64,000 nt of DNA from a bacterium (GCA_027064085.1 JAMOQH010000126.1:5040-69039), one strand, 5' to 3'; counted from the stretch's first letter, positions 1-36,680 are shown. Made by a program: numbers and translations. The notes: generated by a model from the letters alone, not told the origin.

Positions 1-1123
1 ATGGAAAGGTGGTTGTAGCAGACATCTCTTTATCTAAATACAATGCCAATAAACCAAAAATCGCAATTATTGAAGAATATAAAAACACATATTTTCCGTA
101 AGTTAATCCTGATAATAATGCACCAACAAGCCCTCCTAATCCATAAGAAATACCTGATAAAAACAGCATAGCAATCTTTCGAGCATCTTTGTAAATATTG
201 TATAAATATAAAATTGTAGCAGAATAATAAAGGGCAAAGCTAATTGCATGAAGTGCTTGAGAAAAAAATGAAACATAGATATTTGAAGGAAATATAAATA
301 ATAAAAACCATCTTAGTACAGTTATTGATATAGAAAATTTTATAATTTTAACTAATCCGATTTTTAAAATAAAATCCTGAAAATATAAGATTATTACTTC
401 ACATATAACAGAAAATGACCATAAATAGCTTACCATATTCATGTTTATTCCGTGTTTTGTTTCGTATATAGTGAAAAAATTATAATATGCTCCAAAACTA
501 ATTTGAATTAAAAATACTGAAAGCCAAAAGCCCTTATGTTTTAATAAAGAGAGAGTTGCAGGAGCAGTTTTTACTTTATTTATTGAATTATCTCCATTAT
601 TATTACTACGATTTTTATCAAAAAGCATAGTTATTGAAATTAATACAAAAATTAAAGTTGCAAAAATATAAACAAGCAGTATCAATTTGTAATCTTCAGA
701 GAAATTAGATGCAATTAAAGATATAAAAATAAAACCTAAAGAGCCATAAAGCCTTGATTTACCATATTTTTCTTTTAAAATGTTCATGGTTATTAGCTCT
801 GTATAAGGATAAATAATAGTCATACCTATACCCGCTAAAAAATTGCTAAGTAAAAGCCAATAATAATGATTAATGGTAATTAGTAATAGTATAGAACTAG
901 CCAAAGAAGTAAATAAAGCAAAGGCAAATACTTTATCCGTTAATTTAAACTTTTTTAAAAAAACAAATGGTATTGAAAATCTAATTAGGGGAATTGTTGC
1001 AAATATGATTCCAATTTGCATAGATGAATATTTGAAATTATCTAATATTTTAGGAAGATAAATCATATATATTCCAATGGTGATATAAAAAAAGAAATAA
1101 AACGATGACAACTTTAAAAACAT
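1..1123 (-). CDS. MFS-type membrane transporter; start codon at 1123-1121, 3' end runs off the left edge of the window
   Basis: Hand translation of the minus strand from ATG (1123) gives MFLKLSSFYFFFYITIGIYMIYLPKILDNF... and continues as a ~370-aa hydrophobic protein with 10-12 predicted TM segments. Upstream in frame hits a stop at 1172-1174 with no earlier ATG. Absent from the ORF track because it is open at the window edge. Confidence 0.5.
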   Translation of the reverse strand, partial: MFLKLSSFYFFFYITIGIYMIYLPKILDNFKYSSMQIGIIFATIPLIRFSIPFVFLKKFKLTDKVFAFALFTSLASSILLLITINHYYWLLLSNFLAGIGMTIIYPYTELITMNILKEKYGKSRLYGSLGFIFISLIASNFSEDYKLILLVYIFATLIFVLISITMLFDKNRSNNNGDNSINKVKTAPATLSLLKHKGFWLSVFLIQISFGAYYNFFTIYETKHGINMNMVSYLWSFSVICEVIILYFQDFILKIGLVKIIKFSISITVLRWFLLFIFPSNIYVSFFSQALHAISFALYYSATILYLYNIYKDARKIAMLFLSGISYGLGGLVGALLSGLTYGKYVFLYSSIIAIFGLLALYLDKEMSATTTFP

Positions 1124-1328
1124 TTTTCTCCCGAAGAGTAAAAGAGAGAGTATATAGATTATTTAAAAAATATCAAATGTTTTTTGGGGATTTTTATTAT
1201 TAGAGTAGTGGTAGTAATTTTGTTTTCTAATAATTACTGAATTAGAACAATTTTACTCTCTCACCAAAGTAAAAAATTAATAATTACTACAAAATGAAAC
1301 CAGCAATCTTAAACTTTGCTTTAAGCAA

Positions 1329-4300
1329 TTAACGAAGTAGGCTCATTAAACCTTGACTTTGTTGATTAGCTTGAGCCAACATAGAAGTAGAAGCCTGAGA
1401 TAAAATCTGAGACTTAGACAACTTAGTTGTTTCTTGTGCAATATTAAGATCTCTGATTCTTGATTCTGCAGCTGTTTGGTTTTCAGATTGAACATCTAAA
1501 TTAGCCATAGTATGTTCAAGCCTATTAACCCATGCACCAATCTTAGCTCTTTCAGATGAAATTTTTTCTATCGCTTTATCAACTTGAGTTATAGCACTTT
1601 TTGCTTCATCAGCATCAGTTACTTGAACTTTGTCAATTTTTAGTGAGTGAGCATCAGATTGCATTATATTAACATTTAGAGTTTGACCTTGGTTTGCACC
1701 AATTTGAAAATCAGTTGAATTATTAACAATTTTCATCGTTTCTATTTTAGAACCATATTCACTTTTAAATACGAAATTTTTAGCTTTTGTATCATAAGAA
1801 GCTTGTAAGTCATAAGATTGGTCAACCTCTATTTCAACACCATCAACAATATTATGTATAATGTTATCACTAACGGTATCTGTTCCTACAACAGTACCAG
1901 ATAAACTATCTTTTACTGTTACATCTAGTTCATTTTCTGTAGCATTTTGAGTTTCAGATAATCCTAATGCAGTTTTTAATTGCTCACTACCTGATACAAA
2001 AATTCTACCATTTGCTCCAGATACTGCAGACCTAATAACGATAGAACCTTGTTGTGATTCTATAGAACCTGCTGTTGATTCTGTTACAAAACTAACAATA
2101 TTTTGGTCTAGTGCACTACTGCCTGTAGAAATGCCAAGTCCTCCATCCTCAACACCACTAGTAATTGCATTTCTTAATTTATCTACAACATCATTTAATG
2201 AATCTCCACCATCAATATAAACATCAGCTTTGTCACCATAAGCATTATATATTGAAAAAGTTTCTCCATTTTCGCCTAAAATAAATTGTCCATCTGCATT
2301 ATAAAATCTATCTATATCCTTAAGTGTTGTTGATGCCTGAACATCTCCTCCACCATTTTCTGTTGCTGTAAATGAAGCAGAACCATCAGTTGGTAAAGTA
2401 CCTGTATCATTTAATGAAAACTTTGCATCAACAGAGCCTAAACTAACATGACCATTTTCTTGATCCATATAAGCAACGCCTAAAGTAGTCATTTTCTCAT
2501 CTAAAGCACCATTATTGTGAGAGGTAACAACACCCATTTGATATTCACCTGATTTTGGGTCAAAAGCATCAATTCTTGTTAAATCCCCCTCTGTATTATG
2601 ATACCTTCTTGTAACAGTTGTATCAGCTGTTGTAATATTTCCGCCCACTTCTGAATGAGTCATAGTAAAATCATCACTTAAAGCAGAAAAATCTAATTGA
2701 TGATTTGTACTATCATAAACAACAGAAACAGCATTAGATAATTTGGTTCCGTCTGAACCAACAACTGAATTGAATTTTGTTATAAAATCTGTTGCAATCT
2801 CAGCTTCTGTTTTAGTTGCTGCATCTAAATCCACATCAAAATTGAATATTTCTCCAGCTACATCAATCTGCATAGAGATATTGCTATCTGCACCACTATC
2901 GGTAATATCAAGACTGTAATTATTGTAAACAATTCCACCTGCACTAGGATCAGCATTAGCATTATCATTCATTGCAATTAGAATTCTATCTCCTGCTTGG
3001 AAATTACCTGGAATACCATCATTAGTGAAAGCATTATTAAAATCCAAAGAATAATAACCATCAGTTGCGGTTTTGTCACTACCACTTCCATCCCAAATAT
3101 CCTCAACATAAGTCCAGCTATTTCCACCATCAAAACTAACCTTTGCATCAAGGCCTGCATCTCCAATACTACCATCTGTTGTAAATTCAACTAAAGCTGT
3201 TGTTCCATGGTGTGAGTTTGAAGAAGTTGTAAATGCTGCATCAGCTGTACTTCCAAGTTTTCCCATTCCAGTTACGAATTGTGCATCCCATATATCATCT
3301 GTATTAGTCATACCAAAAACAGTATCATTAGCTGCATCAACACCATCAACTTGAACTTTATAATCCAATGCTTTGTTTTCATTTATTGCATAAAATTTAA
3401 GCTCTAAACCGTCTGCTTCTGCTCTAATACTTTCATTTAGCCTATTATCTGCATTAAATGAATCTGCAAGAGCAGTAACTCCAGCTGCTGTCACTGCGGC
3501 AACACTACCAGTAAAGGTAATGGTATTATTTGGGTCTCCATCAAGATTAAAATCTAAACTAACTGCTCCAGTATTAGCAATAGTTAAATCTAAATCTAAT
3601 TTTGCTTCAGTAAAACCTGTTGAACCAGCTTTTAAACTACTTCCCATAATATGATAAATATCATCTTGATATGTTGTTGTAACATCCTGACCGCTAACCG
3701 TTTCAAGTCTATCGAGTATCATAGACCCATCACCTTTCTCATCAACAATTAAGTTATAGTTTGAATCTGAAGTTGGGGATGTTGTAAGATTATTAAGATT
3801 AGTAAACTCTGCAACTCCTGATTTAGAAGTACGATGTTGTACATCAAAAGTACCTTTTTGGTCAGCATTAAGATTTGTAATATTACCAGTGTTACCACCA
3901 GTTGCAGTTTCATCAATTTCTAATGTAAAATCTTTTGATGAATCTTTCATTGTAAAAATTGCTGTTTCTCCACTAATTGTTAAAGTCATTTTACTAGATA
4001 AACCTGCATCGGCACCAGCCCCACCTGCTGCTAAAAAAGCAGTTTGTAAATTACTCATTGAAGTGGTTAAGTCATCCTCATCAGCAACAGAATTAACTAG
4101 ATAATTTACTCCATCAACTTTAAAATCTAAATTAAGAGTTGTTGTATCTCCATTACCACCTGCTCCTAAATTTAAGCTTAATTTATGTTCAGCTGCAGAA
4201 GCATTTAAATCTTTACTTTCTACAGATTGAACACCATCTTTAACTCTAAAAATAGAAGATGCTTGAACTTGGTTTGTTCCTGCTTTGGCATTAATTTCTA

Positions 4301-4814
4301 GTTGGTATTCTCCATCAGAAACCTTACCGTCAGTAAAAACTGCACTCATTTTAGATGTAGAAAAAGATGCAAATCCTGTTGCGTCACCTGTTAATAATTT
4401 TTTGGTATTAAATTCTGTTCTTGTTGAAATACCATCAACTTCATCCTTTAAAGCATCAACTTCTTTTTGAACTTCTATTCTATCATTAGAAGTAAGTGTA
4501 CCATTAGAAGCTTGAACAGCTAATTCTCTCATTCTTTGAAGAATTGAATGTGTTTCGTTTAATGCACCTTCAGCTGTTTGAAGCATTGAAATACCATTCT
4601 GAGCATTTTCATTAGCTTTATTAAGACCTCTTATTTGAGTTCTCATTTTTTCACTAATTGCTAAACCTGAAGCATCATCACTAGCTTGATTAATTCTTAA
4701 ACCAGTTGATAATCTTTTAATTGAAGATGTTTGTGCTTTTGTTGCACCTTGTAAATTTGTTTTAGCAGTTAAAGCTGCCATATTGTTTAAAACTGATAAC
4801 ATAATTTCCTCCAT
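1329..4814 (-). CDS. Giant flagellin paralogue 1 (1161 aa): canonical flagellin N-terminal D0/D1 and C-terminal D1/D0 flanking a ~800-aa central insert
   Basis: N-terminus has LSTGLRINQASDDASGLAISEKMRTQIRGL...ILQRMRELAVQA...TEFNTKKLLTG. C-terminus has IGAWVNRLEHTMANL...ESRIRDLNIAQETTKLSKSQILSQASTSMLAQANQQSQGLMSLLR. GGAGG Shine-Dalgarno 7 nt before the ATG. Confidence 0.85.
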   Translation of the reverse strand: MEEIMLSVLNNMAALTAKTNLQGATKAQTSSIKRLSTGLRINQASDDASGLAISEKMRTQIRGLNKANENAQNGISMLQTAEGALNETHSILQRMRELAVQASNGTLTSNDRIEVQKEVDALKDEVDGISTRTEFNTKKLLTGDATGFASFSTSKMSAVFTDGKVSDGEYQLEINAKAGTNQVQASSIFRVKDGVQSVESKDLNASAAEHKLSLNLGAGGNGDTTTLNLDFKVDGVNYLVNSVADEDDLTTSMSNLQTAFLAAGGAGADAGLSSKMTLTISGETAIFTMKDSSKDFTLEIDETATGGNTGNITNLNADQKGTFDVQHRTSKSGVAEFTNLNNLTTSPTSDSNYNLIVDEKGDGSMILDRLETVSGQDVTTTYQDDIYHIMGSSLKAGSTGFTEAKLDLDLTIANTGAVSLDFNLDGDPNNTITFTGSVAAVTAAGVTALADSFNADNRLNESIRAEADGLELKFYAINENKALDYKVQVDGVDAANDTVFGMTNTDDIWDAQFVTGMGKLGSTADAAFTTSSNSHHGTTALVEFTTDGSIGDAGLDAKVSFDGGNSWTYVEDIWDGSGSDKTATDGYYSLDFNNAFTNDGIPGNFQAGDRILIAMNDNANADPSAGGIVYNNYSLDITDSGADSNISMQIDVAGEIFNFDVDLDAATKTEAEIATDFITKFNSVVGSDGTKLSNAVSVVYDSTNHQLDFSALSDDFTMTHSEVGGNITTADTTVTRRYHNTEGDLTRIDAFDPKSGEYQMGVVTSHNNGALDEKMTTLGVAYMDQENGHVSLGSVDAKFSLNDTGTLPTDGSASFTATENGGGDVQASTTLKDIDRFYNADGQFILGENGETFSIYNAYGDKADVYIDGGDSLNDVVDKLRNAITSGVEDGGLGISTGSSALDQNIVSFVTESTAGSIESQQGSIVIRSAVSGANGRIFVSGSEQLKTALGLSETQNATENELDVTVKDSLSGTVVGTDTVSDNIIHNIVDGVEIEVDQSYDLQASYDTKAKNFVFKSEYGSKIETMKIVNNSTDFQIGANQGQTLNVNIMQSDAHSLKIDKVQVTDADEAKSAITQVDKAIEKISSERAKIGAWVNRLEHTMANLDVQSENQTAAESRIRDLNIAQETTKLSKSQILSQASTSMLAQANQQSQGLMSLLR

Positions 4815-4997
4815 GAAATCATTATTAATAAAATAGCCAAATCCTTTTGACTCTGCTTATTGTAATTAAAATCTAGTTTTTAGATTCTCATTACACATAA
4901 TAAACTAAATAGTTTCATAAGTTCTCCTAAATTAATAATTAATAAAATTAAATATACTCTTGTTTCCTCCTTATATCACTTCTTATAATTTTTTATT

Positions 4998-7900
4998 TTA
5001 TCTCAATAAAGCCATAAGTCCTTGTGCTTGTTGGTTAGCTTGAGCAAGCATAGAAGTTGATGATTGAGCCAATATTTGAGACTTAGATAATTTAGTTGTC
5101 TCTTGTGCAATATTTAAATCTCTAATTCTTGATTCTGCTGCTGTTTGATTTTCTTCTTGTGCTCCAAGGTTATTGATTGTATGTTCTAATCTATTAACCC
5201 AGGCACCTATTTTTGCTCTAGCTGAAGAAACTTTAATAATGGCATTATCAACTTGAGTAATTGCTTCTTTTGCTTCATCTTGATCTGTAACTTGTACTCT
5301 ATCTACTTTAAGAGCATGAGCATCAGCTTGCATAATATTTGTATTTAGTGTTTGGCCTTGATTGGCACCAATTTGAAAGTCTGTTGAATTATCAACAACT
5401 CTCATTGTTTCTATATGTCTTCCTAAGTCACTTTCAAATACGAAAGATTTACTAGATTCATCAAAAGTTGCTTTAATATCATAATTTTGGTCTATTTCAA
5501 TATCAACACCTTTAACTATATTGTGCAGTATGTTATCACTTGTAACATCTCTTCCTACAAATTCACCGGTTAATGCATCATTAACAGTAATTTCTAATTC
5601 GTTTTCTTCTGCTTTATCTACATTAGAAATTCCTAGAGCTGTTTTTAATGCTTCACTTCCAGAAATAAATAATCTACCATTTGCTCCACTTTTAGGAGAA
5701 CGAATAACAATTGAGCCTTGTTGAGATTCTGTAGAATTTGGAATAGATTCTTTAACAAAACTAACTATATTTTCATCTAATTCAGAATTGCCGGTACTCA
5801 TTCCTAGTCCACCATCTACAACATCATTTGTAATTACATCTTTTAATTTATTTACTACATCTCTTAATGAATCACCTCCATCAATATAAACATCAGACTT
5901 ATCTCCATAAGCGTTGTATATAGAAAATGTTTCTCCATTTTGTCCAAGTATAAATTGTCCATCTGCATTATAAAATCTATCAATATCTCTTAGTTTTGTA
6001 GCTGCCTGGACATCTCCTCCGCCATTTTTATTAGCAGTAAAGCTAACTGTACCATCTGTTGGCAAAGTACCTGTTTCAGCTAAAGAAAATTTAGCATCAA
6101 CAGAACCTAAACTTGCTTGTCCACTAGTTTCATCAAAATAAGATACTTTTAAAGTTGTATTACTGTCATCAAGACTATTATTAGGATGGCTTGTTACTAC
6201 TCCCATTTCAAATTGTCCTGTTGTTGGATCAAATGCATCAACTCTTGTTAAATCACCATCTGTAGCTTGAAATCTTTTTGTAACAGAGCCATCTGCTGTT
6301 GTTATATTTCCACCTGTTTCAGAATGTGTCATAGTAAAATCGTCTTTTAAGGCAGTAAAGTTCATTTTATGTGTTCCTGAATCATAAGAAATACTCATAA
6401 CATCAGATAATTTTGTTCCATTACTACCAATTTGTGAATTAAAGTTAGAAATTAAATCACTTGCCATTTGGGCTTCTGTTTTGCTTGCTCCTTCTAGGTT
6501 TGTATTAAAATTGAATACTTCTCCTGCTACATCAATTTTTAATGATAAATTACTATCTGTAGCACTATCTGTAATATCTAAGCTTGTAGTATTATATGTT
6601 GTTGTATCTGGTATAGTATTTGCATTATCATTCATTGCTATCATAACTCTATCACCTGCTTTAAAACTACCAAGTAGCCCGTCATTTGTAAAGGCATTAT
6701 TGAAATCTAATGAATAATAACCATCTGTTGCTGTCTTATCTGTACCACTTCCATCCCAAATATTTTCTACATAAGTCCAACTACTTCCACCATCAAAGCT
6801 TACTTTTGCATCAAGTCCAGCACTACCAATGCTTCCATCTGTTGCAAATTCAATCAATGCACTAGTTCCACTATGGGAATTTGAATTTGCAGTAAATGCG
6901 GTATCCGCTGTAGCTCCCAATTTTCCTAAACCTGTTACAAATTGTGCATCATCAACTTCTCCTGCTGCAATTTGAGTAAAAAGAGCTGCATTTGCTCCAT
7001 CATCTCCAACCATTTGCATTTTATAATCAAGAGCTTTGTGTTGATCAAGAGCATAAAATTTAACTTCTCCTGTCGTTGTACTAGCCTCTGCTTTAATAAA
7101 CTGATTTAATCTATTATCTGCATTTATTGCATTTGCTAAAGTTACTGCATCAGTATTAGCATCAGCACCACCAAGAGCAACCTGAAAGTTAACTATATTA
7201 CTAGGGTTGCCATCTAAACTAAAGTTAATTTCAGCATTTCCAGCTCCACCAGCACCAGATAATGTCATAGGATAATCTAAATAAGCTTCTCTTAAACCTG
7301 TTGATCCTGCTTGTAGAGTAGTACCAATAATGTGATATATATCATCATCATAAGTTACACCACCATTTGCATCTTGGCCACTTACTGTTTCTAGGTTATC
7401 TAAAACCATACTTCCGTCACCCTTTTCATCAACTACAACTTTATAAGAGGCATCACTAGTAGGGCTATCAATTAAATTGTTTAAATTGGTAAATTCAGAT
7501 ATACCGTTTGCAGAACTTCTGTGAGTAACATTAAATAAGCCTTCTTCTCCAACAGCAAGGTTGTTACCCGCACCTGTTTCGTCAACTTTAAAAGTAAAGT
7601 CAACATTAGCATCTTTTGCTGTAAAAAGAACAGTATTGCCGTTAATAGTTAAATTCATTTTACTTGATAAACCTGCATCGGCTCCAGCTCCACCTGCTGC
7701 AAAAAATGCTGTTTGTAAATTACTTTGAGTTGTTGCTAAGTCAGTACCATCTATATTAGATGTAAAGCCATAGTCAACTCCATCTATTTTTATATTATAA
7801 TTACCTGTTGTAGTATTTGCTCCGTCAAGAGTAAAACTCATTTTATGTCGAGCTGGAGATGCGTTTAAGTCCTGAGATTCAACAGATTGAACTCCATCTT

Positions 7901-8474
7901 TAACTCTAAACATTGAAGTAGTTTGAACTTCTCCCTTTCCTGCAATAGCATTAACCTCTAATTGATATTCACCGTCTTTAACATGAGGTCCATAAAAATT
8001 AGCTTTCATTTGGCTTGTAGAAAAAGATGCAAATCCTGTTGCATCACCGGTTAGTAATTTTTTTGTATTAAATTCCGTTCTAGTTGAAATACCATCAATT
8101 TCATCTTTTAAAGCATCAACTTCTTTCTGAACTTCTATTCTATCATTTGAAGTAAGAGTACCATTAGAAGCTTGCACTGCCAATTCTCTCATTCTTTGTA
8201 ATATTGATTGAGTTTCGTTTAATGCACCTTCAGCGGTTTGAAGCATTGATATACCATTCTGAGAGTTTTCACTAGCTTTTTTAAGCCCTCTTATTTGAGT
8301 TCTCATTTTTTCACTAATTGCTAAACCACTAGCATCATCACTAGCATGGTTAATCCTCAGCCCTGTTGAAAGTCTTTGTATTGATTTGGTTTGTGCATTC
8401 GTTGCACCTTGTAAATTTGTTCTAGCCGTTAATGCAGCTAGATTTGTGTTGAATGATAACATAATTTCCTCCAT
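4998..8474 (-). CDS. Giant flagellin paralogue 2 (1158 aa), tandem to paralogue 1
   Basis: Same conserved N/C flagellin domains. The 20-nt leader and start (atttcatggaggaaattatg) are identical to paralogue 1. The terminal ~500 nt at each gene end are ~85-90% identical to paralogue 1 by eye, while the central region is diverged. Confidence 0.85.
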   Translation of the reverse strand: MEEIMLSFNTNLAALTARTNLQGATNAQTKSIQRLSTGLRINHASDDASGLAISEKMRTQIRGLKKASENSQNGISMLQTAEGALNETQSILQRMRELAVQASNGTLTSNDRIEVQKEVDALKDEIDGISTRTEFNTKKLLTGDATGFASFSTSQMKANFYGPHVKDGEYQLEVNAIAGKGEVQTTSMFRVKDGVQSVESQDLNASPARHKMSFTLDGANTTTGNYNIKIDGVDYGFTSNIDGTDLATTQSNLQTAFFAAGGAGADAGLSSKMNLTINGNTVLFTAKDANVDFTFKVDETGAGNNLAVGEEGLFNVTHRSSANGISEFTNLNNLIDSPTSDASYKVVVDEKGDGSMVLDNLETVSGQDANGGVTYDDDIYHIIGTTLQAGSTGLREAYLDYPMTLSGAGGAGNAEINFSLDGNPSNIVNFQVALGGADANTDAVTLANAINADNRLNQFIKAEASTTTGEVKFYALDQHKALDYKMQMVGDDGANAALFTQIAAGEVDDAQFVTGLGKLGATADTAFTANSNSHSGTSALIEFATDGSIGSAGLDAKVSFDGGSSWTYVENIWDGSGTDKTATDGYYSLDFNNAFTNDGLLGSFKAGDRVMIAMNDNANTIPDTTTYNTTSLDITDSATDSNLSLKIDVAGEVFNFNTNLEGASKTEAQMASDLISNFNSQIGSNGTKLSDVMSISYDSGTHKMNFTALKDDFTMTHSETGGNITTADGSVTKRFQATDGDLTRVDAFDPTTGQFEMGVVTSHPNNSLDDSNTTLKVSYFDETSGQASLGSVDAKFSLAETGTLPTDGTVSFTANKNGGGDVQAATKLRDIDRFYNADGQFILGQNGETFSIYNAYGDKSDVYIDGGDSLRDVVNKLKDVITNDVVDGGLGMSTGNSELDENIVSFVKESIPNSTESQQGSIVIRSPKSGANGRLFISGSEALKTALGISNVDKAEENELEITVNDALTGEFVGRDVTSDNILHNIVKGVDIEIDQNYDIKATFDESSKSFVFESDLGRHIETMRVVDNSTDFQIGANQGQTLNTNIMQADAHALKVDRVQVTDQDEAKEAITQVDNAIIKVSSARAKIGAWVNRLEHTINNLGAQEENQTAAESRIRDLNIAQETTKLSKSQILAQSSTSMLAQANQQAQGLMALLR

Positions 8475-8532
8475 GAAATATTTGTGAAACCGAGTCCGTT
8501 CGGTTTAGGAGAATCCTTTCTCCATATTTTGC

Positions 8533-8559
8533 TTATCGACCATTGTTTTTAAAACTAAA
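8533..8559 (-). promoter_or_regulatory. Sigma28 (FliA)-type promoter for flagellin paralogue 2
   Basis: The minus strand reads TTTAGTTT-N11-GTCGATAA, versus the consensus TAAAGTTT-N11-GCCGATAA (6/8 and 7/8 matches, correct spacing). It lies ~60 nt upstream of the ATG at 8474. Confidence 0.5.
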
Positions 8560-8592
8560 ATATTTTTTTTATTTTTTTTATTTTTTTATTTT

Positions 8593-8629
8593 TTGTGTAG
8601 AGACAAGGCAATGCCTTGTCTCTACACAA
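8593..8629. promoter_or_regulatory. Perfect 37-bp palindrome (18+1+18): ttgtgtagagacaaggca-a-tgccttgtctctacacaa
   Basis: Arms 8593-8610 and 8612-8629 are exact reverse complements. It sits in the divergent flagellin-2/flgI intergenic region just beyond a run of phased T8/T8/T7/T6 tracts. Confidence 0.6.
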
Positions 8630-8644
8630 TTTTAATATAATAAT

Positions 8645-8660
8645 AGGAAAATAGATTGCA
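8645..8660 (+). promoter_or_regulatory. Candidate sigma54 (-24/-12) promoter for flgI-flgJ
   Basis: aGGaaa-ataga-TTGCAt: GG(8646-8647)-N10-GC(8658-8659) with a TTGCA -12 element. It resembles the AT-rich TGGAAC-N5-TTGCTT variant. A 12-bp palindrome ctatccggatag (8662-8673) follows at the predicted start site. Confidence 0.3.
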
Positions 8661-8732
8661 TCTATCCGGATAGTATTACTAAATTTATATGTAATACCTT
8701 ATTTATGTAAACATTTTTTTGACGAGGTCAAT

Positions 8733-9821
8733 ATGTTGAAATATATTTTAATAATGATTATTTTTAGTTCTATTGCTTTTGGTTCAAGAATAAAAGATAT
8801 TTCTTATGTTAAAGGAGTTAGAAATAATAGTTTAATTGGTTATGGAATTATTGTCGGCCTTGATGGTACAGGTGATGATGATAAAGCTAAATTTACGATT
8901 AAATCTTTAGTAAATATGCTTGAAAAAATGGGAGTAAAATTTGATTCGAGGTCTTTAAAGGTAAAAAATGTAGCAGCTGTTATGGTAACTGCTAAGTTAC
9001 CACCATTTTCAAGAGTTGGTAATAAAATAGATATTGAAGTGTCATCAATTGGTAATGCCAAGTCATTAAGGGGTGGAGTTTTGATTATGACACCATTAAA
9101 AGGAGCTGATGGTAAAGTTTATGCTATTGCTCAAGGTAATCTGTCTGTTAATGGTTATTCTGTTAAAAGTGGGAAAACAAAATCTAAGGCAGTTAAAAAT
9201 CATTTAACTGTAGGCAGAATTCCTAATGGGGGTACTATAGAGAGAGAGTTAAAAAATTCTATTTTAAATAAATCATATTTAGATTTAATTTTAAAAAATC
9301 CAGATTTTACAACTGCATATAGATTAAAAAAAACAATTAATGAACAATTTGGTGAAAATTTGGCAAAAGCAATAGATAGTAATACCATAAGGGTAGTTCT
9401 TCCTGTTAGTTTAAAGGAAAATCCTATAAAATTTATTGCAATAGTTGAAAATTTAGATGTAAAAGTTGATACTCCTGCGAAAATTGTAATAAATGAAAGA
9501 ACTGGTACAATTATTATAGGTAAAAATGTAACAATTTCTTCTGTAGCTATTTCACATGGTAATTTAAATATTATTGTTGAAGAAAATGAAACCCTTAGTC
9601 AGCCTTCGGCTCTTAGTTTTGGAACAACTGCTAAAACTAAATCAACTAAAATAAAAGTAAAGGAAGATAATGCTGATTTTAGTTTATTACAAGATAAAGT
9701 TACTTTAGAAGATTTAGTTAAAGCTTTAAACTCTCTTGGTGTTTCAACTAGAGATATGATTTCTATTATTCAAGCCATAAAAGCTAGTGGAGCATTACAG
9801 GCTGAGTTGGAGATTATATGA
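8733..9821 (+). CDS. flgI: Flagellar P-ring protein FlgI
   Basis: Signal peptide, then [30 protein letters not shown]. Full-length similarity to the FlgI family, 362 aa. Confidence 0.85.
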   Translation: [362 protein letters not shown]

Positions 9822-10552
9822 TAAGTAAGAATATGTTGACAGAGCTTATTGGTAAGGATAAGACGATGTCCTATTCTACTACGAAGGCAACAGTTCATTC
9901 AGAGATAGGAAAACATAAGTCTTCTGCTAAAGATGAAAAAATTAAAAAAGTAGCAAAAGATTTTGAATCTTTATTAATAGGTGAAATATTTAAAGTAATG
10001 AGGAAATCTATTCATAAAACAGAACTAACTAAAGGTGGGTTTGGTGAAGATATATTTGAGTCTATGCTTGATGGAGAAATGTCTAAAAATTTAGCACAAA
10101 GAGATATGCTTGGTATATCAAAAATGCTTGAAAAGGAATTGCTTGGAAAAGCAAATAATACTATTCAAAAAAGTAGAAATTCAATATTACCAGCAATAGG
10201 TAGAATAACTTCTAAATTTGGAATGAGAGAGCATCCTATTACACATAAATTAAGCCATCATGATGGTGTTGATATCGCCTTAAAGGAAGGTACTCCAATA
10301 AAAGCTAGTTTAGGTGGCAAAGTTGTATTCTCTGGTAAACAAAATGGATATGGAAATGTTATTATTGTTAAAAATGGTGAATATGAAATGGTTTATGCTC
10401 ATTGTTCAAAATTATTGTTTAATAAGGGAGATAATGTAAAAAAAGGAGAAAAAATAGCTCTTTCTGGAAATACAGGTCGTTCAACAGGCCCTCATTTACA
10501 CTTTGAAGTAAGGCATAAAGGTAAAGCTATAGATCCATTTTCTCTATTTTAA
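9818..10552 (+). CDS. flgJ: FlgJ-like protein: N-terminal rod-binding domain fused to a C-terminal M23 (LytM) peptidase domain
   Basis: AKDFESLLIGEIFKVMRKS matches the FlgJ rod-binding motif. C-terminus has HHDGVDIA...GNTGRSTGPHLHFEV (M23 zinc-peptidase signature). The start ATGA overlaps the flgI stop. Confidence 0.7.
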   Translation: MISKNMLTELIGKDKTMSYSTTKATVHSEIGKHKSSAKDEKIKKVAKDFESLLIGEIFKVMRKSIHKTELTKGGFGEDIFESMLDGEMSKNLAQRDMLGISKMLEKELLGKANNTIQKSRNSILPAIGRITSKFGMREHPITHKLSHHDGVDIALKEGTPIKASLGGKVVFSGKQNGYGNVIIVKNGEYEMVYAHCSKLLFNKGDNVKKGEKIALSGNTGRSTGPHLHFEVRHKGKAIDPFSLF

Positions 10553-10582
10553 AAAAAAAGGGGCGAAAAGCCCCTTTTTTTT
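10551..10582. terminator. Bidirectional Rho-independent terminator between convergent flgJ and ppdK
   Basis: A9-GGGGC-gaaaa-GCCCC-T8: a perfect 5-bp GC stem flanked by an A-run on one side and a T-run on the other. Confidence 0.8.
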
Positions 10583-10607
10583 AGTCATACAATCTTATTA
10601 CATATTA

Positions 10608-13445
10608 CTATTTCTTCTTAAAAAAACCTTTTACTGCATCTACCGCTTTATTTGCAACTTCGCTTGCTTTATCAGCAACATCAGATGCAACATTACTAGC
10701 TAGCTCAAGAGCAGATTTGTCTTCTATCTTAGCTTGTGCAGATGCTAATCTAGCAATAGGCACTCTAAAAGGAGAACAGCTAACATAATTTAATCCTGTT
10801 TTATAGCAGAACTTAACACTTGATGGTTCTCCACCATGTTCACCACAAATACCAACTTTTAAATTAGGCTTACTACTTCTACCTTTATCTGTAGCCATTT
10901 CAACTAATTGACCAACACCAGTTTGGTCTAAAACTTGGAAAGGATCATTTTTATAAATACCTTTTTTTGAGTATTCAGAAATTAATGCAGCAGTATCATC
11001 TCTTGATAAACCAAATGACATTTGAGTTAGATCATTAGTTCCAAATGAGAAAAATTCAGCATGTTCTGCGATTGCATCAGCAGTTAGTGCTGCTCTTGGA
11101 ATTTCTATCATTGTTCCAACCATGTAATCAATTTTATTGTTTCTTTCCTCAAAAACTTTTTCTGCAGTTTCTCTAATTATTTTTTCTTGAGCTTTAAATT
11201 CTTTTACTTCACCTACAAAAGGAATCATTATTTCTGGTTTTGCTGTAATTCCTTTTTCTTTTAAATTTAATGCAGCTTCTATAATAGCTCTTGTTTGCAT
11301 TTCTGTAATTTCAGGATATGTATTTCCTAATCTACAACCTCTATGGCCTAACATTGGATTAAATTCTGCTAATGAATCAACTTTTTCTTTGATATATTCA
11401 ATAGATTTACCCATTTCATCAGCCATTTCTTTTTGGTTTGCTTCTTCATGAGGAACAAATTCATGCAAAGGTGGATCAAGTAATCTAACTGTTACAGGTA
11501 AGTCATGCATAGCAGTGAAAATACCTTCAAAGTCTTCTCGCTGAATAGGAAGTAATTTAGCTAACGCAACTTTTCTACCTTCTAAGTTTTCAGCAAGTAT
11601 CATTTCTCTGATAGCTTTAATTTTATCACCACCAAAAAACATATGTTCTGTTCTACATAAACCGATACCTTGTGCTCCAAAAGCTCTAGCAACTTTACTA
11701 TCTTCAGGCGTATCAGCATTTGTTCTTACTAACATTGTTGCATATTTATCTGTTAGTTTCATCAGTTTGCCAAAATCTCCACCTACTTCAGGGTTAACTG
11801 TAGCCACTTTACCATCGTAAATTTCACCAGTAGAACCATTTAATGAGATGAAATCACCTTCTTTATATGTTTTATCTCCCATTGTTAAAGTTCTTTCTTT
11901 ATAGTCAATTTTTATTTCACCAGCACCAGAAACACAACATTTTCCCATTCCTCTAGCAACAACGGCTGCATGACTAGTCATGCCACCTCTTGCTGTAAGA
12001 ATACCTTGTGCTAAATTCATTCCTTTTAAATCTTCTGGAGATGTTTCAATTCTAACTAATATAATATCTTCTTTTTTATCTTCAACCCAAGCTTCTGCTT
12101 CATCTGAAAAGAAAATAATTTTACCTGTTGCTGCACCTGGGCTTGCAGGAAGGCCCTTACCCATAACACTAGCTGAGCTTAAAGCTTCTTTAGCAAATAC
12201 AGGGTGAAGTAATTCATCTAATTTATTAGGTTCAACCCTCAGAATGGCTGTTTTTTCATCAATCATACCTTCATCAAGCATGTCCATAGCCATTTTAACC
12301 ATTGCGGCACCAGTTCTTTTACCGGTTCGAGTTTGTAAGAACCATAATTTACCATCTTGAATAGTAAATTCTAAGTCTTGCATATCAGAATAATGGTTTT
12401 CTAGTTTAGTTTCTAATGAAGATAATTCTGCATAAGCCTCTGGCATTGCTTCTTCTAGAGAAGGGTAGTTTTCTTTTCTATCTTCTTCTGTAACGCCTGC
12501 TAATTTAGCCCATCTTTTTGAACCTTCAAGAGTAATTTGTTGAGGTGTTCTGATTCCGGCAACAACATCTTCACCTTGAGCATTAATTAAATATTCTCCG
12601 TTAAAAATATCTTCACCGGTAGCAGCATCTCTTGTAAAAGCAACGCCTGTTGCACTATCTTCGCCCATATTTCCATAAACCATAGCTTGAACATTTACTG
12701 CTGTTCCCCATTCTTCAGGAATTTTATTCATTTGACGGTAGTATATAGCTCTATCTGTGTTCCAAGAATCAAAAACAGCCATTACTGCACCCCAAAGTTG
12801 ATCCCATGGATCTTCTGGGAAATCATGTCCAGTAAACTTTTTAACCACATCTTTAAAATCTAAAACGAGTTGCTTTAGGTCGTCAACTGATAATTCATTA
12901 TCATTTTTAACGCCTGCTTTTTTCTTAGCTTTTTCTAAAACAAGTTCAAATGGGTCTTTATCATCCATACCTTCTGGTTCAACACCTAAAACAACATCAC
13001 CATACATTTGAACAAATCTTCTGTATGAATCCCAAGCAAATTCAGGATTACCTGATTTAGTAGCAAGCCCTTCAACAGCATCATCATTTAAACCAAGGTT
13101 TAATACTGTGTCCATCATTCCAGGCATAGATACTCTTGCTCCACTACGAACTGATACTAAACATGGATTTTCTTGAGAACCGAATTTCGTTCCCATTAAA
13201 TCTTCTATATTTTTAATTCCTGCTTTAACATCTTCCATAAGTGCTTTAACAACAGCATCTTTTCCATGCTTATTATATTCTGTACAAACTTCGGTTGTAA
13301 TTGTAAAACCCGGAGGAACAGGAACTCCAACTAAGTTCATTTCAGCTAAATTAGCACCTTTTCCACCAAGCAAATTTTTCATCTCTGTTTTACCTTCGGC
13401 AAGACCATTACCAAAAGTATAAACTCTTTTTCTGTTTTTCAACAT
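10608..13445 (-). CDS. ppdK: Pyruvate, phosphate dikinase
   Basis: 945 aa. N-terminus is FGNGLAEGKTEMKNLLGGKGANLAEM. Contains the GGMTSHAAVVARGMGKCCV phosphohistidine region and a PEP-utilising C-terminal domain. Confidence 0.9.
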   Translation of the reverse strand: MLKNRKRVYTFGNGLAEGKTEMKNLLGGKGANLAEMNLVGVPVPPGFTITTEVCTEYNKHGKDAVVKALMEDVKAGIKNIEDLMGTKFGSQENPCLVSVRSGARVSMPGMMDTVLNLGLNDDAVEGLATKSGNPEFAWDSYRRFVQMYGDVVLGVEPEGMDDKDPFELVLEKAKKKAGVKNDNELSVDDLKQLVLDFKDVVKKFTGHDFPEDPWDQLWGAVMAVFDSWNTDRAIYYRQMNKIPEEWGTAVNVQAMVYGNMGEDSATGVAFTRDAATGEDIFNGEYLINAQGEDVVAGIRTPQQITLEGSKRWAKLAGVTEEDRKENYPSLEEAMPEAYAELSSLETKLENHYSDMQDLEFTIQDGKLWFLQTRTGKRTGAAMVKMAMDMLDEGMIDEKTAILRVEPNKLDELLHPVFAKEALSSASVMGKGLPASPGAATGKIIFFSDEAEAWVEDKKEDIILVRIETSPEDLKGMNLAQGILTARGGMTSHAAVVARGMGKCCVSGAGEIKIDYKERTLTMGDKTYKEGDFISLNGSTGEIYDGKVATVNPEVGGDFGKLMKLTDKYATMLVRTNADTPEDSKVARAFGAQGIGLCRTEHMFFGGDKIKAIREMILAENLEGRKVALAKLLPIQREDFEGIFTAMHDLPVTVRLLDPPLHEFVPHEEANQKEMADEMGKSIEYIKEKVDSLAEFNPMLGHRGCRLGNTYPEITEMQTRAIIEAALNLKEKGITAKPEIMIPFVGEVKEFKAQEKIIRETAEKVFEERNNKIDYMVGTMIEIPRAALTADAIAEHAEFFSFGTNDLTQMSFGLSRDDTAALISEYSKKGIYKNDPFQVLDQTGVGQLVEMATDKGRSSKPNLKVGICGEHGGEPSSVKFCYKTGLNYVSCSPFRVPIARLASAQAKIEDKSALELASNVASDVADKASEVANKAVDAVKGFFKKK

Positions 13446-13592
13446 AATTTCTCCTAAAAAAACAAAACAAAAATTACGGTATTAATATAACAGAAATGAG
13501 TAATAAACTCAATGTTTATTTGATTTATTTGTGAATTATCTCCGGTTATCTTACTACTAGTTTACTAATAATGCTTATTTATTTAACATATT

Positions 13593-14312
13593 TTAGGATA
13601 ACTCAAACCAACTGACTTTTCCTATAATCTTAAAGTTAAGTTTTTGAGTAAGGGATAATGAATTTTTATTTTTGATAATAACATATACAAATGGTATTTT
13701 TTTATTTTCAATAAGTTTATTTATTAAATATTTAGTAATTTTTTCACCATAACCTTTGCGTCTGTAGCTTTTTAATGTATGAAAAAATCCCATTGCTCCA
13801 TCATCTTGGGTTATAATCCAGGAGATTAGCTTGTCTCCAATAAAATAACCAACTGATTCTCCATCTTTTATGCGAGTTTTTACATAGTCTAAAGAATATT
13901 CTGATTTATAAGGCCAAAAATCATTAACTATATTTGTATTTGAAATAGTTAAAGGAGGATATTTTTTTATAGTAAAAGCTTTATTTTCTAGATAAGCAAG
14001 TTTATAACAATTTTCTTGCCATATTATTTTTTTGTTGTTTGCAATTATATTTACAAATTCAGTATTTGTAGCAGCAAAATATTTTTCATTTTTAATAAAG
14101 GGTATAAAATCTTTTAATTCATTAATGTCATTAGCAGACAAGTGTACCCAACCCTCTGAGCGATTTTGTTTTATTGCTACACAATTTTTGTAAATTTCAA
14201 TTTCAGAAATTTTATTATCATTTAGTAAATTAATCATTGCACAATTTAATATTTTATCTTTATATAATATTTTAAGAGCTTTTTCTTTTAGTTTAGAATT
14301 TATTATTTGCAT
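13593..14312 (-). CDS. GNAT-family N-acetyltransferase
   Basis: The C-terminal GFFHTLKSYRRKGYGEKITKYLINKL matches the acetyl-CoA-binding motif. Confidence 0.55.
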   Translation of the reverse strand: MQIINSKLKEKALKILYKDKILNCAMINLLNDNKISEIEIYKNCVAIKQNRSEGWVHLSANDINELKDFIPFIKNEKYFAATNTEFVNIIANNKKIIWQENCYKLAYLENKAFTIKKYPPLTISNTNIVNDFWPYKSEYSLDYVKTRIKDGESVGYFIGDKLISWIITQDDGAMGFFHTLKSYRRKGYGEKITKYLINKLIENKKIPFVYVIIKNKNSLSLTQKLNFKIIGKVSWFELS

Positions 14313-14336
14313 TTTAATTCCTAAATCATAAATATT

Positions 14337-17435: not shown

Positions 17436-17465
17436 GTTTTTCCTTATTAAAAGTTTTAAGTAATC

Positions 17466-25518: not shown

Positions 25519-25806
25519 ATGGCAAGAGTAACTGTAGAAGACTGCCTAGTGAAAATACCAAATAGATTTGCATTAGTAATTCTTGCAACACAAAGAACAA
25601 GAATGTTGCTTAGAGGAGCTGATCCAAAAATTGAAAGTGATAATAAATTTCCTGTTATTGCTCTTAGAGAAATCGCAGCAGGTTATGTAAGATTTACAAG
25701 AGATGTAGAAGAAGAATTAAAAGAAACATTTGATGAATTTAAAATCTCTTATTACTACCCAAAAGAAAAGAATACCGATGAAGTTTCAGGATTAACTCTT
25801 ATTTAG
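25519..25806 (+). CDS. rpoZ: DNA-directed RNA polymerase omega subunit
   Basis: [30 protein letters not shown]. Preceded by a GGAGGG Shine-Dalgarno. The track ORF start at 25381 adds 46 low-complexity residues and is probably not the real start. Confidence 0.75.
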
Positions 25807-29636: not shown

Positions 29637-29644
29637 ATATTCTC

Positions 29645-30301: not shown

Positions 30302-30310
30302 CTAATCTCC

Positions 30311-33419: not shown

Positions 33420-36410
33420 TTATCTTAATAAGCTCATTAAACCTTGAGCTTGCTGATTTGCTTGAGCCAGCATCGCTGTTGATGTTTGAGAAAGAATTTG
33501 TGATTTTGATAATTGAGTTGTTTCTCTTGCAACATCTAAATCTCTAATTGCTGATTCTGCGGCCGTAGTATTTTCTCTTTGGGCAGCTAAATTAGCCATA
33601 GTATATTCTAATCTATTTGCATAAGCTCCAATTCTTGCTCTTTCTGATGAAACCATATCAATAGCTTCATCAAGAGTTCTTATGGATTCTTGAGCTGGTT
33701 CAGGATCTGTTAATAACACCCTTGTTATTCCTAATGCTTGTGCATCCATTTGAGAAATAAATGCATTCATCATTTGCCCTTCGTTTGCTCCAATTTGAAA
33801 ATCCATAGAGTTATCTACTATGTTAATTGTTTCAGTTGATGTTTCATCTGTTGAAGTAAAATCAAAAGCTCTAGTTGCAGTATTCCAATTAACATTTAAG
33901 TTATAATTTGCATCAAATTCTATATCAATTCCATCTATAACACCTTGAAGCCTATTGTCACTAACGGTATCTTGCCCTACAAATTCGCCTGTAATTGCAT
34001 CTCTAACTGTAATGTCCATTTCATTGTTTTTTGCCTCTTGAATAGTAGAAACTCCTAGTGCATTTAATAAGTCTTCATTTGCTGCTAAATATAATCTACC
34101 ATCTTTATCTGTTTTAGGAGATCTAATAACAATAGAGCCTTGCTGATTTTCAAAAGTACCACTTGTTGGAGTATCTATATAATCGGCAACATGCTTATCT
34201 ACAACTACATCACCTGAAGACATTCCCAATCCTCCATCACTTTTATCACCAATTATCGCATTCTCTATTTTCTCAGATAAAACATCTAGTGTGTCTAAAC
34301 CATCGATTAGCACTGTTGAGCTATCTCCAACTCCATTATATACTGTAAGATATTGACCATGATCTCCAAGTATAAAATTTCCATCTGGGTCATAAAATCT
34401 ATCTAAATCAATTAATCTACTATGGCCACTACTATCACCACCGCCATTCATTACATTAAATGTTACTATACCATCACTTACAGGAACACCGGTAACAGAT
34501 TCATTAAAGCTTGTTGCCATAGTTCCAAATTCTATATGTCCTGTTTCTGTATTAATCCAACCTGCTTGTAATTCTGTTGATGCATTGTCTAAGGTGTTAT
34601 CAATATGACTAAATACTGCACCTTGCTGAGGTAAATTATTTGAAGGGTCAAATGCATCTACTCTTGTTAAATCCCTATTGGGAGTATTGTCATTATCATT
34701 AAGGGCAATCAGCATTCTATCTCCAATTTGATAGTTAGCTCCATTACCATTATTTGTAAAAGCTCTATTAAACTCTAATGTCTGTATTCCATCAGTTACA
34801 AGAGTATCAGTTGCTCCATTCCAAATATCATCAGCACTGTACCATGTATCTCCCTGATTAAATGACACTCTTGCATCTAGGCCAGCTGCCCCTAAGCTTC
34901 CATCTGATGTAAATTCAATAATCGCATAACCACCAGTTGCAGAATTACTATTAGTTGTGAATGCATCTGCTGCAGTAGTACCTAAATTACCTAAATTATT
35001 CGTAAATGCATGAAGTCCCTGATCTGCTACTTCAACTGTTGGATCCGCTCCTACAGTTAATGAATAATTGTTGCTTTGACTTGGGTCATCAACAGTAATT
35101 GTTACATTACCCGCACCATCATCATGGGCAGTAATATATTGATTTAAGTCTGTATTTGCATTAATTGCGTCTGCAATTTCAGTTCCATTACCTGCAACTG
35201 TACCTGTTGTTGTGTTTATTACAACAGGAATATCATCTCCACCTAAATTAAATGTTAAATTTACAGCTCCATTAACTGCTGTTGCTGTAATGTCTCCAGA
35301 CATTTGTGAGCTATTTAAACCATTTGAACCATCTTGTAAATATTGTCCAACCATTCCATATATATCATTGGCACCAACTTGTAAGTTTCCATCTGCTCCT
35401 TCGTCAATATTTATTTTATAGTTTGTTGTAGTTGATGGAATTAAACCAACAGTGTTTGAAACACCTGAGATACCCGCTTGAGATTCATTACCTCCTGAGA
35501 AAATATGTATTCCTTGGTCTAATGGGTCAACTCCAGAGCCACTAATCGTAGCTTGAAATCCATTGCCGGCAACACCAGTTTCTCTTGATGTGATTAAAAC
35601 ATCTCCTGTTGGAGTATAATTCGCAATAATACTATCATTTAATCTAGTATCATTATTTATTTGATCAACAATTTCTTGTGCATTATCTAAAATGGTTGCA
35701 CCAGTTGTTGTATAGTTAAAATCTATATCACCATTTCCAAAGTTAAAAATAACATCTACATTTCCTGCAATTGCTGTTGGAGTAATATTTCCTTGCATTG
35801 CTGCTTGTTGTCCAAATAGTGTTATGTCTCTAACGCCTTTGACACCATCTTTAATTCTAAAAACAGATGTTTGTAATACTTGAGGAACGCCTGGGTCTGC
35901 ATGTATTTCTAAGCTATAGGAACCGTCATCAACTTGACCTCTTACAAAAGCATTGATATCTCCTGTTGAAGCAGACCATAATGCACTTGATTCACCAGTT
36001 AAAAGTCTTTTTGTATTAAATTCAGTTCTTTTTGCTGTAGCATCGATTTCTTTAATAAGGGATTCAACTTCATGTTGAACTTCAAGTCTATCATCTGAAG
36101 TTAATGTACCATTAGATGCTTGAATTGCTAATTCTCTCATTCTATGTAGCATTCCATGAACTTCATTTAGAGCTCCTTCTGCTGTTTGAATAAGTGAAGT
36201 TGCTGATTGAGCGTTTTCTTCAGCTCTTGATAAACCTCTTATTTGTGTTCTCATTCTTTCAGATATTGATAAGCCTGATGGATCATCTGCTGCCGAGTTA
36301 ATTCTTAGACCACTTGAAAGTCTTGAGATGGACTTTGTAACCATACTGTTTGCAGTATTTAAGTCATTTTGAGCTGATAAAGCAGCTAAGTTATTATTAA
36401 TTGATAACAT
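33420..36410 (-). CDS. Giant flagellin paralogue 3 (996 aa)
   Basis: N-terminus has LSSGLRINSAADDPSGLSISERMRTQIRGL...TEFNTKRLLTG. C-terminus has RIGAYANRLEYTMANL...LSKSQILSQTSTAMLAQANQQAQGLMSLLR. The central region shares blocks with paralogues 1 and 2. Confidence 0.85.
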   Translation of the reverse strand: MLSINNNLAALSAQNDLNTANSMVTKSISRLSSGLRINSAADDPSGLSISERMRTQIRGLSRAEENAQSATSLIQTAEGALNEVHGMLHRMRELAIQASNGTLTSDDRLEVQHEVESLIKEIDATAKRTEFNTKRLLTGESSALWSASTGDINAFVRGQVDDGSYSLEIHADPGVPQVLQTSVFRIKDGVKGVRDITLFGQQAAMQGNITPTAIAGNVDVIFNFGNGDIDFNYTTTGATILDNAQEIVDQINNDTRLNDSIIANYTPTGDVLITSRETGVAGNGFQATISGSGVDPLDQGIHIFSGGNESQAGISGVSNTVGLIPSTTTNYKINIDEGADGNLQVGANDIYGMVGQYLQDGSNGLNSSQMSGDITATAVNGAVNLTFNLGGDDIPVVINTTTGTVAGNGTEIADAINANTDLNQYITAHDDGAGNVTITVDDPSQSNNYSLTVGADPTVEVADQGLHAFTNNLGNLGTTAADAFTTNSNSATGGYAIIEFTSDGSLGAAGLDARVSFNQGDTWYSADDIWNGATDTLVTDGIQTLEFNRAFTNNGNGANYQIGDRMLIALNDNDNTPNRDLTRVDAFDPSNNLPQQGAVFSHIDNTLDNASTELQAGWINTETGHIEFGTMATSFNESVTGVPVSDGIVTFNVMNGGGDSSGHSRLIDLDRFYDPDGNFILGDHGQYLTVYNGVGDSSTVLIDGLDTLDVLSEKIENAIIGDKSDGGLGMSSGDVVVDKHVADYIDTPTSGTFENQQGSIVIRSPKTDKDGRLYLAANEDLLNALGVSTIQEAKNNEMDITVRDAITGEFVGQDTVSDNRLQGVIDGIDIEFDANYNLNVNWNTATRAFDFTSTDETSTETINIVDNSMDFQIGANEGQMMNAFISQMDAQALGITRVLLTDPEPAQESIRTLDEAIDMVSSERARIGAYANRLEYTMANLAAQRENTTAAESAIRDLDVARETTQLSKSQILSQTSTAMLAQANQQAQGLMSLLR

Positions 36411-36680
36411 GGTAACCTCCCTGTACTAGCTTAATATTGAACCCTCTAAGCTAAAAAAATTATTGCTTTTAGTGGTCTTTCATTCGCTGACAATTTAAAC
36501 ATCGTCAACAAGGTGAAATACTAAAATTTTTTATCCTCTTTTCCTAAAGCAATGAACTTTCCTAAAATATTATTAATTTTAAAATTTAGTAAATACAGTA
36601 GGTTAGCTTTTGTTATTTAAGGTGAATTAAAATTTAATAGTTGTCAATATATTGTCATTATTTTGTAAGTGGCAAGTTTT

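Follow-up and report, generated by a model that had tools for sequence, protein, structure and literature searches.

The 64,000-nucleotide window analysed here, a stretch of bacterial DNA (GCA_027064085.1 JAMOQH010000126.1:5040-69039) with a GC (guanine plus cytosine) content of 28%, carries on its (-) strand two tandem genes for very large flagellins, Fla1 and Fla2. The family has a third gene in the window, Fla3, at a distance of ~25 kb from the pair; it was absent from an earlier note on this DNA. We report here on the identity of these proteins, on the scaffold that they contain and on the modules by which they have been enlarged. The genes, and the terminal regions of Fla1 that identify it as a flagellin, are as follows:

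1329..4814, (-) strand: Fla1, an open reading frame (ORF) of 1161 residues from the first ATG, probably 1157 residues from the ATG at 4802
4998..8474, (-) strand: Fla2, an ORF of 1158 residues from the first ATG, probably 1154 residues from the ATG at 8462
33420..36410, (-) strand: Fla3, 996 residues; Flagellin_N 134 bits and Flagellin_C 82 bits; modules A and B (described below), no module C
4380..4814, (-) strand: N-terminal D0/D1 helices of Fla1, residues 1-145; Flagellin_N over residues 9-145; modelled helices H3-36, H48-103 and H109-132
1329..1604, (-) strand: C-terminal D1/D0 helix of Fla1, residues 1071-1161, with the stop codon; Flagellin_C over residues 1076-1160; an unbroken modelled helix H1068-1160

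The tandem ORFs are just as the earlier note placed and sized them. Their first ATGs both lie within ATGGAGGAAATTATG, in which GGAGGA forms a ribosome-binding site 5 nt before a second ATG, and public gene calls on the same DNA begin at this second ATG, giving 1157 and 1154 residues. For both reasons the true starts are probably 4802 (Fla1) and 8462 (Fla2), and the ORF-based start MEEIM... (4803-4814 and 8463-8474) is probably wrong. The same choice of start explains why an exact look-up of the 1161-residue product in public proteins returned no match.

Fla1 and Fla2 are 69% identical over their full length. Pfam scans place Flagellin_N (PF00669, cutoff 26.6 bits) at residues ~8-145 with scores of 136 bits in Fla1 and 142 bits in Fla2, and Flagellin_C (PF00700, cutoff 23 bits) over the final ~85 residues with 80 and 77 bits, respectively, the latter match stopping one residue before the stop codon. 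The terminal domains thus score well above the flagellin thresholds, and the flagellin matches are confined to the termini; no other Pfam family was found between the termini of Fla1 or Fla2, and nine insert segments scanned one by one at E ≤ 10 yielded noise only. The best NCBIfam matches are likewise flagellin models, with Hag at 254-260 bits (flagellin models overall, 190-260 bits). The stretch between the Pfam-defined termini measures ~930 residues, more than the ~800 first estimated. Its composition favours D, T, G, S, A and N, it contains no Cys, and beta-strand predominates in its AlphaFold2 model. Net charge per subunit is -87, -73 and -83 for Fla1, Fla2 and Fla3, with isoelectric points of ~4.1-4.4. 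These data support the earlier identification of both proteins as flagellins, with D0/D1 termini that are intact and an outer region that is very large, rich in beta-strand and presumably exposed at the surface. Fla1 (1157-1161 residues) and Fla2 (1154-1158 residues) both exceed the 1000 residues used to define giant flagellins with D0/D1 termini, and Fla3 at 996 residues falls just under that threshold.

The genes are intact beyond this assembly. Window bases 1-18462 are 99.98% identical to an ENA metagenome contig (ERZ27262656:k141_122640, here L082) with the same two ORFs, on which a 1154-residue flagellin gene (P0005) occupies the position matching Fla2. An orthologous locus with ~83% nucleotide identity (JGI 3300026544, here L001) has an intact tandem pair adjoining flgI and flgJ. 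Approximately 10 full-length relatives of 1110-1175 residues were found in JGI, ENA, NCBI and Logan data, and no relative turned up among GTDB species genomes scanned for peptide patterns of Fla1. Ratios of nonsynonymous to synonymous substitution (dN/dS, Nei-Gojobori) were calculated against the orthologues for 11 segments per protein, yielding 0.04-0.09 for Fla1 and 0.05-0.24 for Fla2 across all 11 segments, the inserted modules included. Every region of both proteins is under purifying selection.

The scaffold and its inserted modules

The best solved-structure match to Fla1 is PDB 9au6_A (phmmer E 1.4e-107), the 793-residue flagellin EP073_12645 of Geovibrio thiophilus. The phmmer domains cover Fla1 residues 8-423 and 768-1160, the latter with 210 bits, and the middle (about residues 200-780) aligned only in part; the Fla1 region 741-1070 corresponds to 9au6 residues 396-700. 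With 77 relatives as input, AlphaFold2 gave a model of Fla1 with a mean predicted local distance difference test score of 81.9 and a predicted template modelling score (pTM) of 0.59; in a Foldseek alignment of the full model, 9au6_A matches at E 9.8e-46 (target-normalised TM-score 0.65). On the strength of these sequence and structure matches the window proteins contain the Geovibrio scaffold. Relative to P0105, a G. thiophilus paralogue, Fla1 is 60% identical over residues 4-199 and 37% identical over residues 781-1161.

The G. thiophilus flagellin, described as the largest flagellin structure determined, forms a 24-nm filament by cryo-electron microscopy and has four beta-rich outer domains, D2-D5, with an unusually negative surface, its outer domains being assigned to 'cluster #41' (PMC11532411). 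This filament (PDB 9AU6) is the closest characterised relative of the window proteins and was left out of the comparison set of the earlier note. The two systems share a homologous D0/D1 core, first outer segment (residues 146-200) and C-terminal outer region (residues 741-1070), and both flagellins are strongly acidic. The G. thiophilus genome has three flagellin genes, two close together and one apart (PMC11532411), so that both genomes have two neighbouring flagellin genes and a third elsewhere. Unlike the G. thiophilus protein, with its D2-D5-only architecture, the giant window proteins, ~360 residues longer, carry three added modules of about 340 residues in all. These modules (A, B and C) and the conserved outer region map as follows:

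1605..2594, (-) strand: outer region of Fla1 common to Geovibrio-type flagellins, residues 741-1070; phmmer match to 9au6, length conserved in 77 aligned relatives
3825..4214, (-) strand: module A, Fla1 residues ~201-330; Fla2 ~7512-7874; Fla3 ~35481-35825
3300..3602, (-) strand: module B, Fla1 residues ~405-505; Fla2 ~6963-7265; Fla3 ~35028-35288
2595..2939, (-) strand: module C, Fla1 residues ~626-740; Fla2 ~6264-6602; none in Fla3

Segment lengths were obtained by projecting the 77-sequence alignment onto the segments of Fla1. Across all relatives of 755-1175 residues, length hardly varies in the D0/D1 termini, in residues 146-200 and in residues 741-1070. The module A segment is only 3-22 residues long in the 755-881-residue proteins of Geovibrio, Deferribacteres and Chrysiogenetes type, and about 110-180 residues long in relatives of 860-950 residues and in all three window proteins. 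Module B occurs only in Fla3 and in proteins of at least 1110 residues, and module C only in flagellins of at least 1110 residues. The result is a stepwise series, from no module (~755-880 residues) through A (~860-950 residues) and A+B (Fla3) to A+B+C (~1110-1175 residues).

Profile-profile comparison by hhalign reveals that the modules are related to each other: A matches B at 98.4% probability (E 5.5e-15) and C at 74.7% (E 2.6e-5, 81 columns), and modules matched six other outer segments at no more than 8% probability. The relationship emerged only at this level, a BLASTP comparison of Fla1 with itself having found no internal repeats. The joint alignment has a recurring pattern (F-x-F/L-x-G; a helix ending A-I-N-A-D/N; L-x-x-x-I-x-A; D-Y-x-hydrophobic), and AlphaFold2 predicts for each module, about 95-130 residues in size, the same order of two strands, a 12-14-residue helix and three strands. 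Judged from these profiles, the three modules are homologues of one another and have one predicted fold. The modelled fold resembles outer or decoration domains of Pseudomonas aeruginosa FliC (D2), Helicobacter pylori FlaA, FliD (D2/D3) and phage tail sheaths; the sequence of the modules shows no significant similarity to them, with no Pfam match above threshold and no Foldseek match at E ≤ 0.001. When residues 150-745 were searched exhaustively by phmmer against 1.84 billion representatives, only 5 proteins were returned, those of full length being flagellins of this clade; at that sensitivity, then, no relatives of the middle region are detectable beyond the clade. From the homology of the modules we conclude that the giants arose by the copying of one small domain into three points of the scaffold; intermediates survive.

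The paralogues document the same series within one genome. Fla3, more distant than Fla1 and Fla2 are from each other, aligns to Fla1 residues 5-620 and 744-1161 and thus lacks about 125 residues; a public orthologue (P0121) is 95% identical to it. When Fla1 is compared with Fla2, identity is 85-90% in the core, against 58% in module A, 41% in module B and 61% in module C, and dN/dS in the modules is 0.32-0.54; the two paralogues thus show their greatest divergence in the added outer modules. Related 28%-GC contigs (L083, 10001-13480; L084, 1776-5255) encode a fourth giant paralogue, P0002 (1159 residues, 76% identical to Fla1), directly upstream of flaG and near flgE, and the host genome of the window may have a similar copy outside the window.

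The setting in which these proteins should be placed is broader than first thought. The earlier note described giant flagellins as known only rarely and 1161 residues as the extreme of their range, and neither statement holds: in 2017 UniProt contained 92 proteins of more than 1000 residues with a flagellin N-terminal domain, from many phyla, and the longest bacterial entries reach ~1930-1965 residues (Thomson et al. 2018, PMC6248924). The top entry, of 2628 residues, is filed under a fungus, and the listed Deferribacteres entries span 1141-1284 residues (Deferribacter desulfuricans 1168, Calditerrivibrio 1141, Denitrovibrio 1284) (PMC6248924). Given bacterial entries of up to 1965 residues, a protein of about 1157 residues is mid-range among giant flagellins.

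Among the Oceanospirillales, the 1020-residue flagellin of Bermanella marisrubri and the 1190-residue flagellin of Oleibacter marinus form filaments of at least 30 nm and have grown by internal duplication (PMC6248924). The window proteins resemble them in exceeding 1000 residues, in stepwise growth by duplication of an internal outer-domain unit and in the thick filaments to be expected. They differ in having another scaffold and in the arrangement of the copies, since the Oceanospirillales DE copies are in tandem with a glycine-rich DX insert between them, whereas the window modules occupy three separate points. The duplicated units may be of the same 'IN-motif' type: hhalign matches the module profile to the second half of Thomson's DE region at 34% probability (E 4e-4, 62 columns; controls ≤ 2%), which is not significant. 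PF07196 (Flagellin hook IN motif) matches 4 of 37 module copies, none of them from Fla1, and the best of these (E 0.2) falls short of the threshold.

Published work already covers giant flagellins, including their occurrence in many phyla and their enlargement through domain duplication. The new elements are the combination of a Geovibrio scaffold with three dispersed paralogous modules, the occurrence of its stepwise series in a single family and a single genome, and the host lineage. The family offers a clean example of flagellin enlargement, in which one small decoration domain was inserted three times into a large scaffold of solved structure. Forms with zero, one and two copies persist as intermediates, and the two-copy form, Fla3, is in the same genome. 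The general picture of flagellar biology is unchanged.

Candidate expression signals and flagellar context

Candidate control elements precede the flagellin genes, and two further flagellar genes adjoin Fla2:

8535..8559, (-) strand: sigma-28-like promoter motif, TTTAGTTT-N11-GTCGAT, ~70 nt upstream of Fla2
36501..36525, (-) strand: sigma-28-like promoter motif, TTTAGTAT-N11-GACGAT, ~90 nt upstream of Fla3
8462..8523, (-) strand: Fla2 5' leader, three hairpins with loops containing or overlapping GGA, the last loop holding the start of the ribosome-binding site
4802..4852, (-) strand: Fla1 5' leader, a hairpin with GGA in its loop and a hairpin over the ribosome-binding site; fold z = -2.0
8733..10552, (+) strand: flgI (P-ring, 362 residues) and a flgJ-like rod-binding/peptidase M23 gene (244 residues), divergent from Fla2

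The two promoter motifs resemble the FliA consensus, which we take to be TAAAGTTT-N11-GCCGATAA. The pattern TTTAGT-N13-GNCGAT has exactly two matches in the window, both upstream of flagellin genes, and the motif upstream of Fla2 is conserved upstream of its L001 orthologue. No terminator was recognised between Fla2 and Fla1 or after Fla1.

The Fla2 leader RNA folds at -15.9 kcal/mol (z = -2.1), and the orthologue retains the middle hairpin, with changes in both arms of the stem. Leader hairpins with GGA loops recur upstream of the P0001, P0006 and P0002 genes, that of Fla1 being shared with P0001 and P0002. GGA-loop hairpins, including one over the ribosome-binding site, are the pattern of CsrA sites on Bacillus hag mRNA; by this analogy the leader hairpins may be sites of CsrA/FliW-type translational control.

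The genes belong to a genome with a flagellar apparatus: flgI and the flgJ-like gene adjoin Fla2, and flgE and flaG are near the fourth paralogue on a related contig. The L082 copies of the two genes beside Fla2 carry PF02119 (FlgI) and, for the flgJ-like gene, PF10135 (Rod-binding) and PF01551 (Peptidase_M23).

Two observations concern the surroundings of the flagellin genes. Between the divergent flgI and Fla2, at 8593-8629, lies a 37-nt hairpin with a perfect 17-bp stem (TTGTGTAGAGACAAGGCAATGCCTTGTCTCTACACAA); long A-rich runs follow it on the Fla2 strand, and it does not occur in the orthologous L001 spacer. Because nothing upstream needs terminating, this hairpin may be an operator or a repeat element. 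Directly downstream of Fla3, at 28875-33292 on the (-) strand, is a cyclic-nucleotide signalling cluster comprising a CHASE2 adenylate/guanylate cyclase (993 residues), a cyclic-nucleotide-monophosphate-binding protein (218 residues) and a metallo-beta-lactamase-fold protein (253 residues) that also matches the class-II cAMP phosphodiesterase family. From its position, a link of this cluster to flagellin control is possible.

The filament model and its alternatives

We propose, with a probability of roughly 0.85, that Fla1, Fla2 and Fla3 are filament-forming flagellins on a Geovibrio-type scaffold enlarged by three paralogous modules. In this model the N- and C-terminal helices would form the usual D0/D1 polymerisation core and all that lies between them would project outward, modules A, B and C having been placed into the multi-domain scaffold at three different points. 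The product would be a thick, unsheathed filament, roughly 29 nm in diameter if its packing density matches that of Geovibrio, an estimate obtained by scaling the published diameter (24 nm x sqrt(1157/793); PMC11532411). Its surface would be strongly acidic, with the subunit charges of -73 to -87 given above. As the paralogues differ most in the added modules, the cell could probably display alternative surfaces. Expression is probably late flagellar, as suggested by the sigma-28-like promoters before Fla2 and Fla3, with CsrA control suggested by the Fla1 and Fla2 leader hairpins. Fla1 is about 45% larger than the largest solved flagellin (793 residues), and its structure by cryo-electron microscopy would bear on the packing of additional outer layers over the 11-protofilament core.

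Several results weigh against parts of this proposal. The pTM of just 0.59 leaves the relative placement of domains, and with it the diameter estimate, uncertain, and export and assembly are predicted from sequence and a structural model, each paralogue being a candidate for the major subunit. Direct hhalign comparison of modules B and C is weak (E 0.013), though full length, and a search of a 5.8-billion-protein collection with the module profile returned nothing; as it failed to retrieve even the proteins behind the profile, perhaps through filters or through the scaling of E-values to so large a database, that negative is uninformative. The link of the modules to PF07196 or to Thomson's DE region is suggestive only. 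For expression, the count of sigma-28-like motifs taken alone lacks significance (two or more matches arose in 17 of 100 shuffles), and no recognisable sigma-28 -10 element was found upstream of Fla1.

A bolder extension of the filament model would make the modules its outermost, extremely acidic layer, yielding the thickest unsheathed filament of known architecture (about 29 nm or more), with paralogues swapping surfaces; this we consider doubtful, with perhaps an outside chance of being right. If true, surface switching might serve, for example, adhesion to positively charged minerals or evasion of flagellotropic phages, and the filament would be a swappable adhesive surface besides a propeller.

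Of the competing explanations, the one that survives best holds that these are flagellin-derived proteins that do not polymerise but, exported through the type III system of the flagellum, act as adhesins or at the cell surface, like Campylobacter FlaC or the cell-surface flagellin homologues of Sphingomonas A1. The very large acidic outer region could hinder packing, the PDB matches include the Sphingomonas 'cell-surface flagellin' (via the D1 region only), and with several paralogues one could have diverged in role. We nevertheless find this improbable. D0/D1 is full length, 85-99% identical among paralogues and orthologues and constrained at dN/dS of 0.04-0.13; its invariant residues are kept throughout the whole family of 750-1175-residue proteins; and the nearest relative that has been characterised assembles into a filament with four outer domains.

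Flagellin_N is also carried by FlgL/HAP3, a protein of the hook-filament junction, and assignment of the window proteins to that family might be suggested by sub-threshold matches to the TIGR02550 FlgL and HAP3 models and by several giant UniProt PF00669 entries annotated as FlgL. The FlgL score of 81-84 bits is, however, under the NCBIfam cutoff of 127.2, far from the 190-260 bits of the flagellin models, and Flagellin_C scores 77-82 bits; identity to a G. thiophilus flagellin is 60% over the N-terminal ~195 residues, and three to four tandem or dispersed paralogues are typical of flagellins, not of FlgL. We rejected this assignment, and consider it very unlikely.

Less probable still is an enzymatic flagellin that displays a catalytic domain on the filament, the comparison with flagellinolysin drawn in the earlier note. 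Flagellinolysin (Clostridium haemolyticum FliA(H) and relatives) is likewise a flagellin whose large insert is displayed on the filament, some flagellins have enzymes as their large inserts (PMC7643111), and NCBIfam NF033876 (flagellinolysin) gives weak matches. Those matches reach 58-63 bits against a cutoff of 205 and cover only residues ~961-1092, adjoining the C-terminal D1; the HExxH motif is present in 0 of 77 family members, no insert segment has a Pfam enzyme domain, and the predicted folds are small beta-rich decoration domains. Lacking HExxH and the metalloprotease domain, the window proteins are not comparable with flagellinolysin in this respect.

That the long ORFs are assembly or frameshift artefacts joining a normal flagellin to an unrelated gene, a possibility that the earlier note had offered for checking and that a metagenome-type assembly might favour, has a negligible probability and is refuted by intact copies of the same architecture in independent assemblies (L082 at 99.98%, L001 at ~83%, and P0002-P0009 and P0013 from JGI, ENA, NCBI and Logan) together with dN/dS of 0.04-0.24 throughout, while the Flagellin_C helix is in frame at the end and the AlphaFold2 model is confident across the insert.

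The host and other genes of the window

MurC (37289-38650, (-) strand) has a small set of metagenomic relatives at 46-83% identity and then no more than 40% identity to every named taxon, from which we conclude that the host belongs to an uncultured, deep-branching lineage; Geovibrio-type acidic flagellins are thereby extended to a lineage far from any named taxon. The presence of flgI implies a P-ring and therefore an outer membrane. For the neighbouring pyruvate phosphate dikinase, identity to the enzymes of many unrelated phyla (e.g., Chlorobiota, Cloacimonadota and Bacteroidales) is 72-78%, so that this protein is uninformative on taxonomy; its history may differ from that of the rest of the genome.

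Other large or repetitive proteins are encoded in the window. A single ORF of more than 3100 codons (~54640-64000, (+) strand) begins with a signal-peptide-like sequence, MLKLLNKLYFFILLLTLFSVNIFA, and runs off the right end; from its sequence it looks like a giant secreted or surface protein. At 14337-17435 on the (-) strand is a 1032-residue protein that consists almost wholly of ankyrin repeats (Ank_2, 429 bits), adjoined by a MoxR-type AAA ATPase (17466-18626, (-) strand), and a second ankyrin-repeat protein of 319 residues lies at 25799-26758 on the same strand; this ankyrin-repeat content is unusual for a bacterium. A 784-residue protein with a seven-bladed RCC1-repeat propeller is encoded at 46126-48480 on the (+) strand, within a stretch of very strong GC skew (+0.41).

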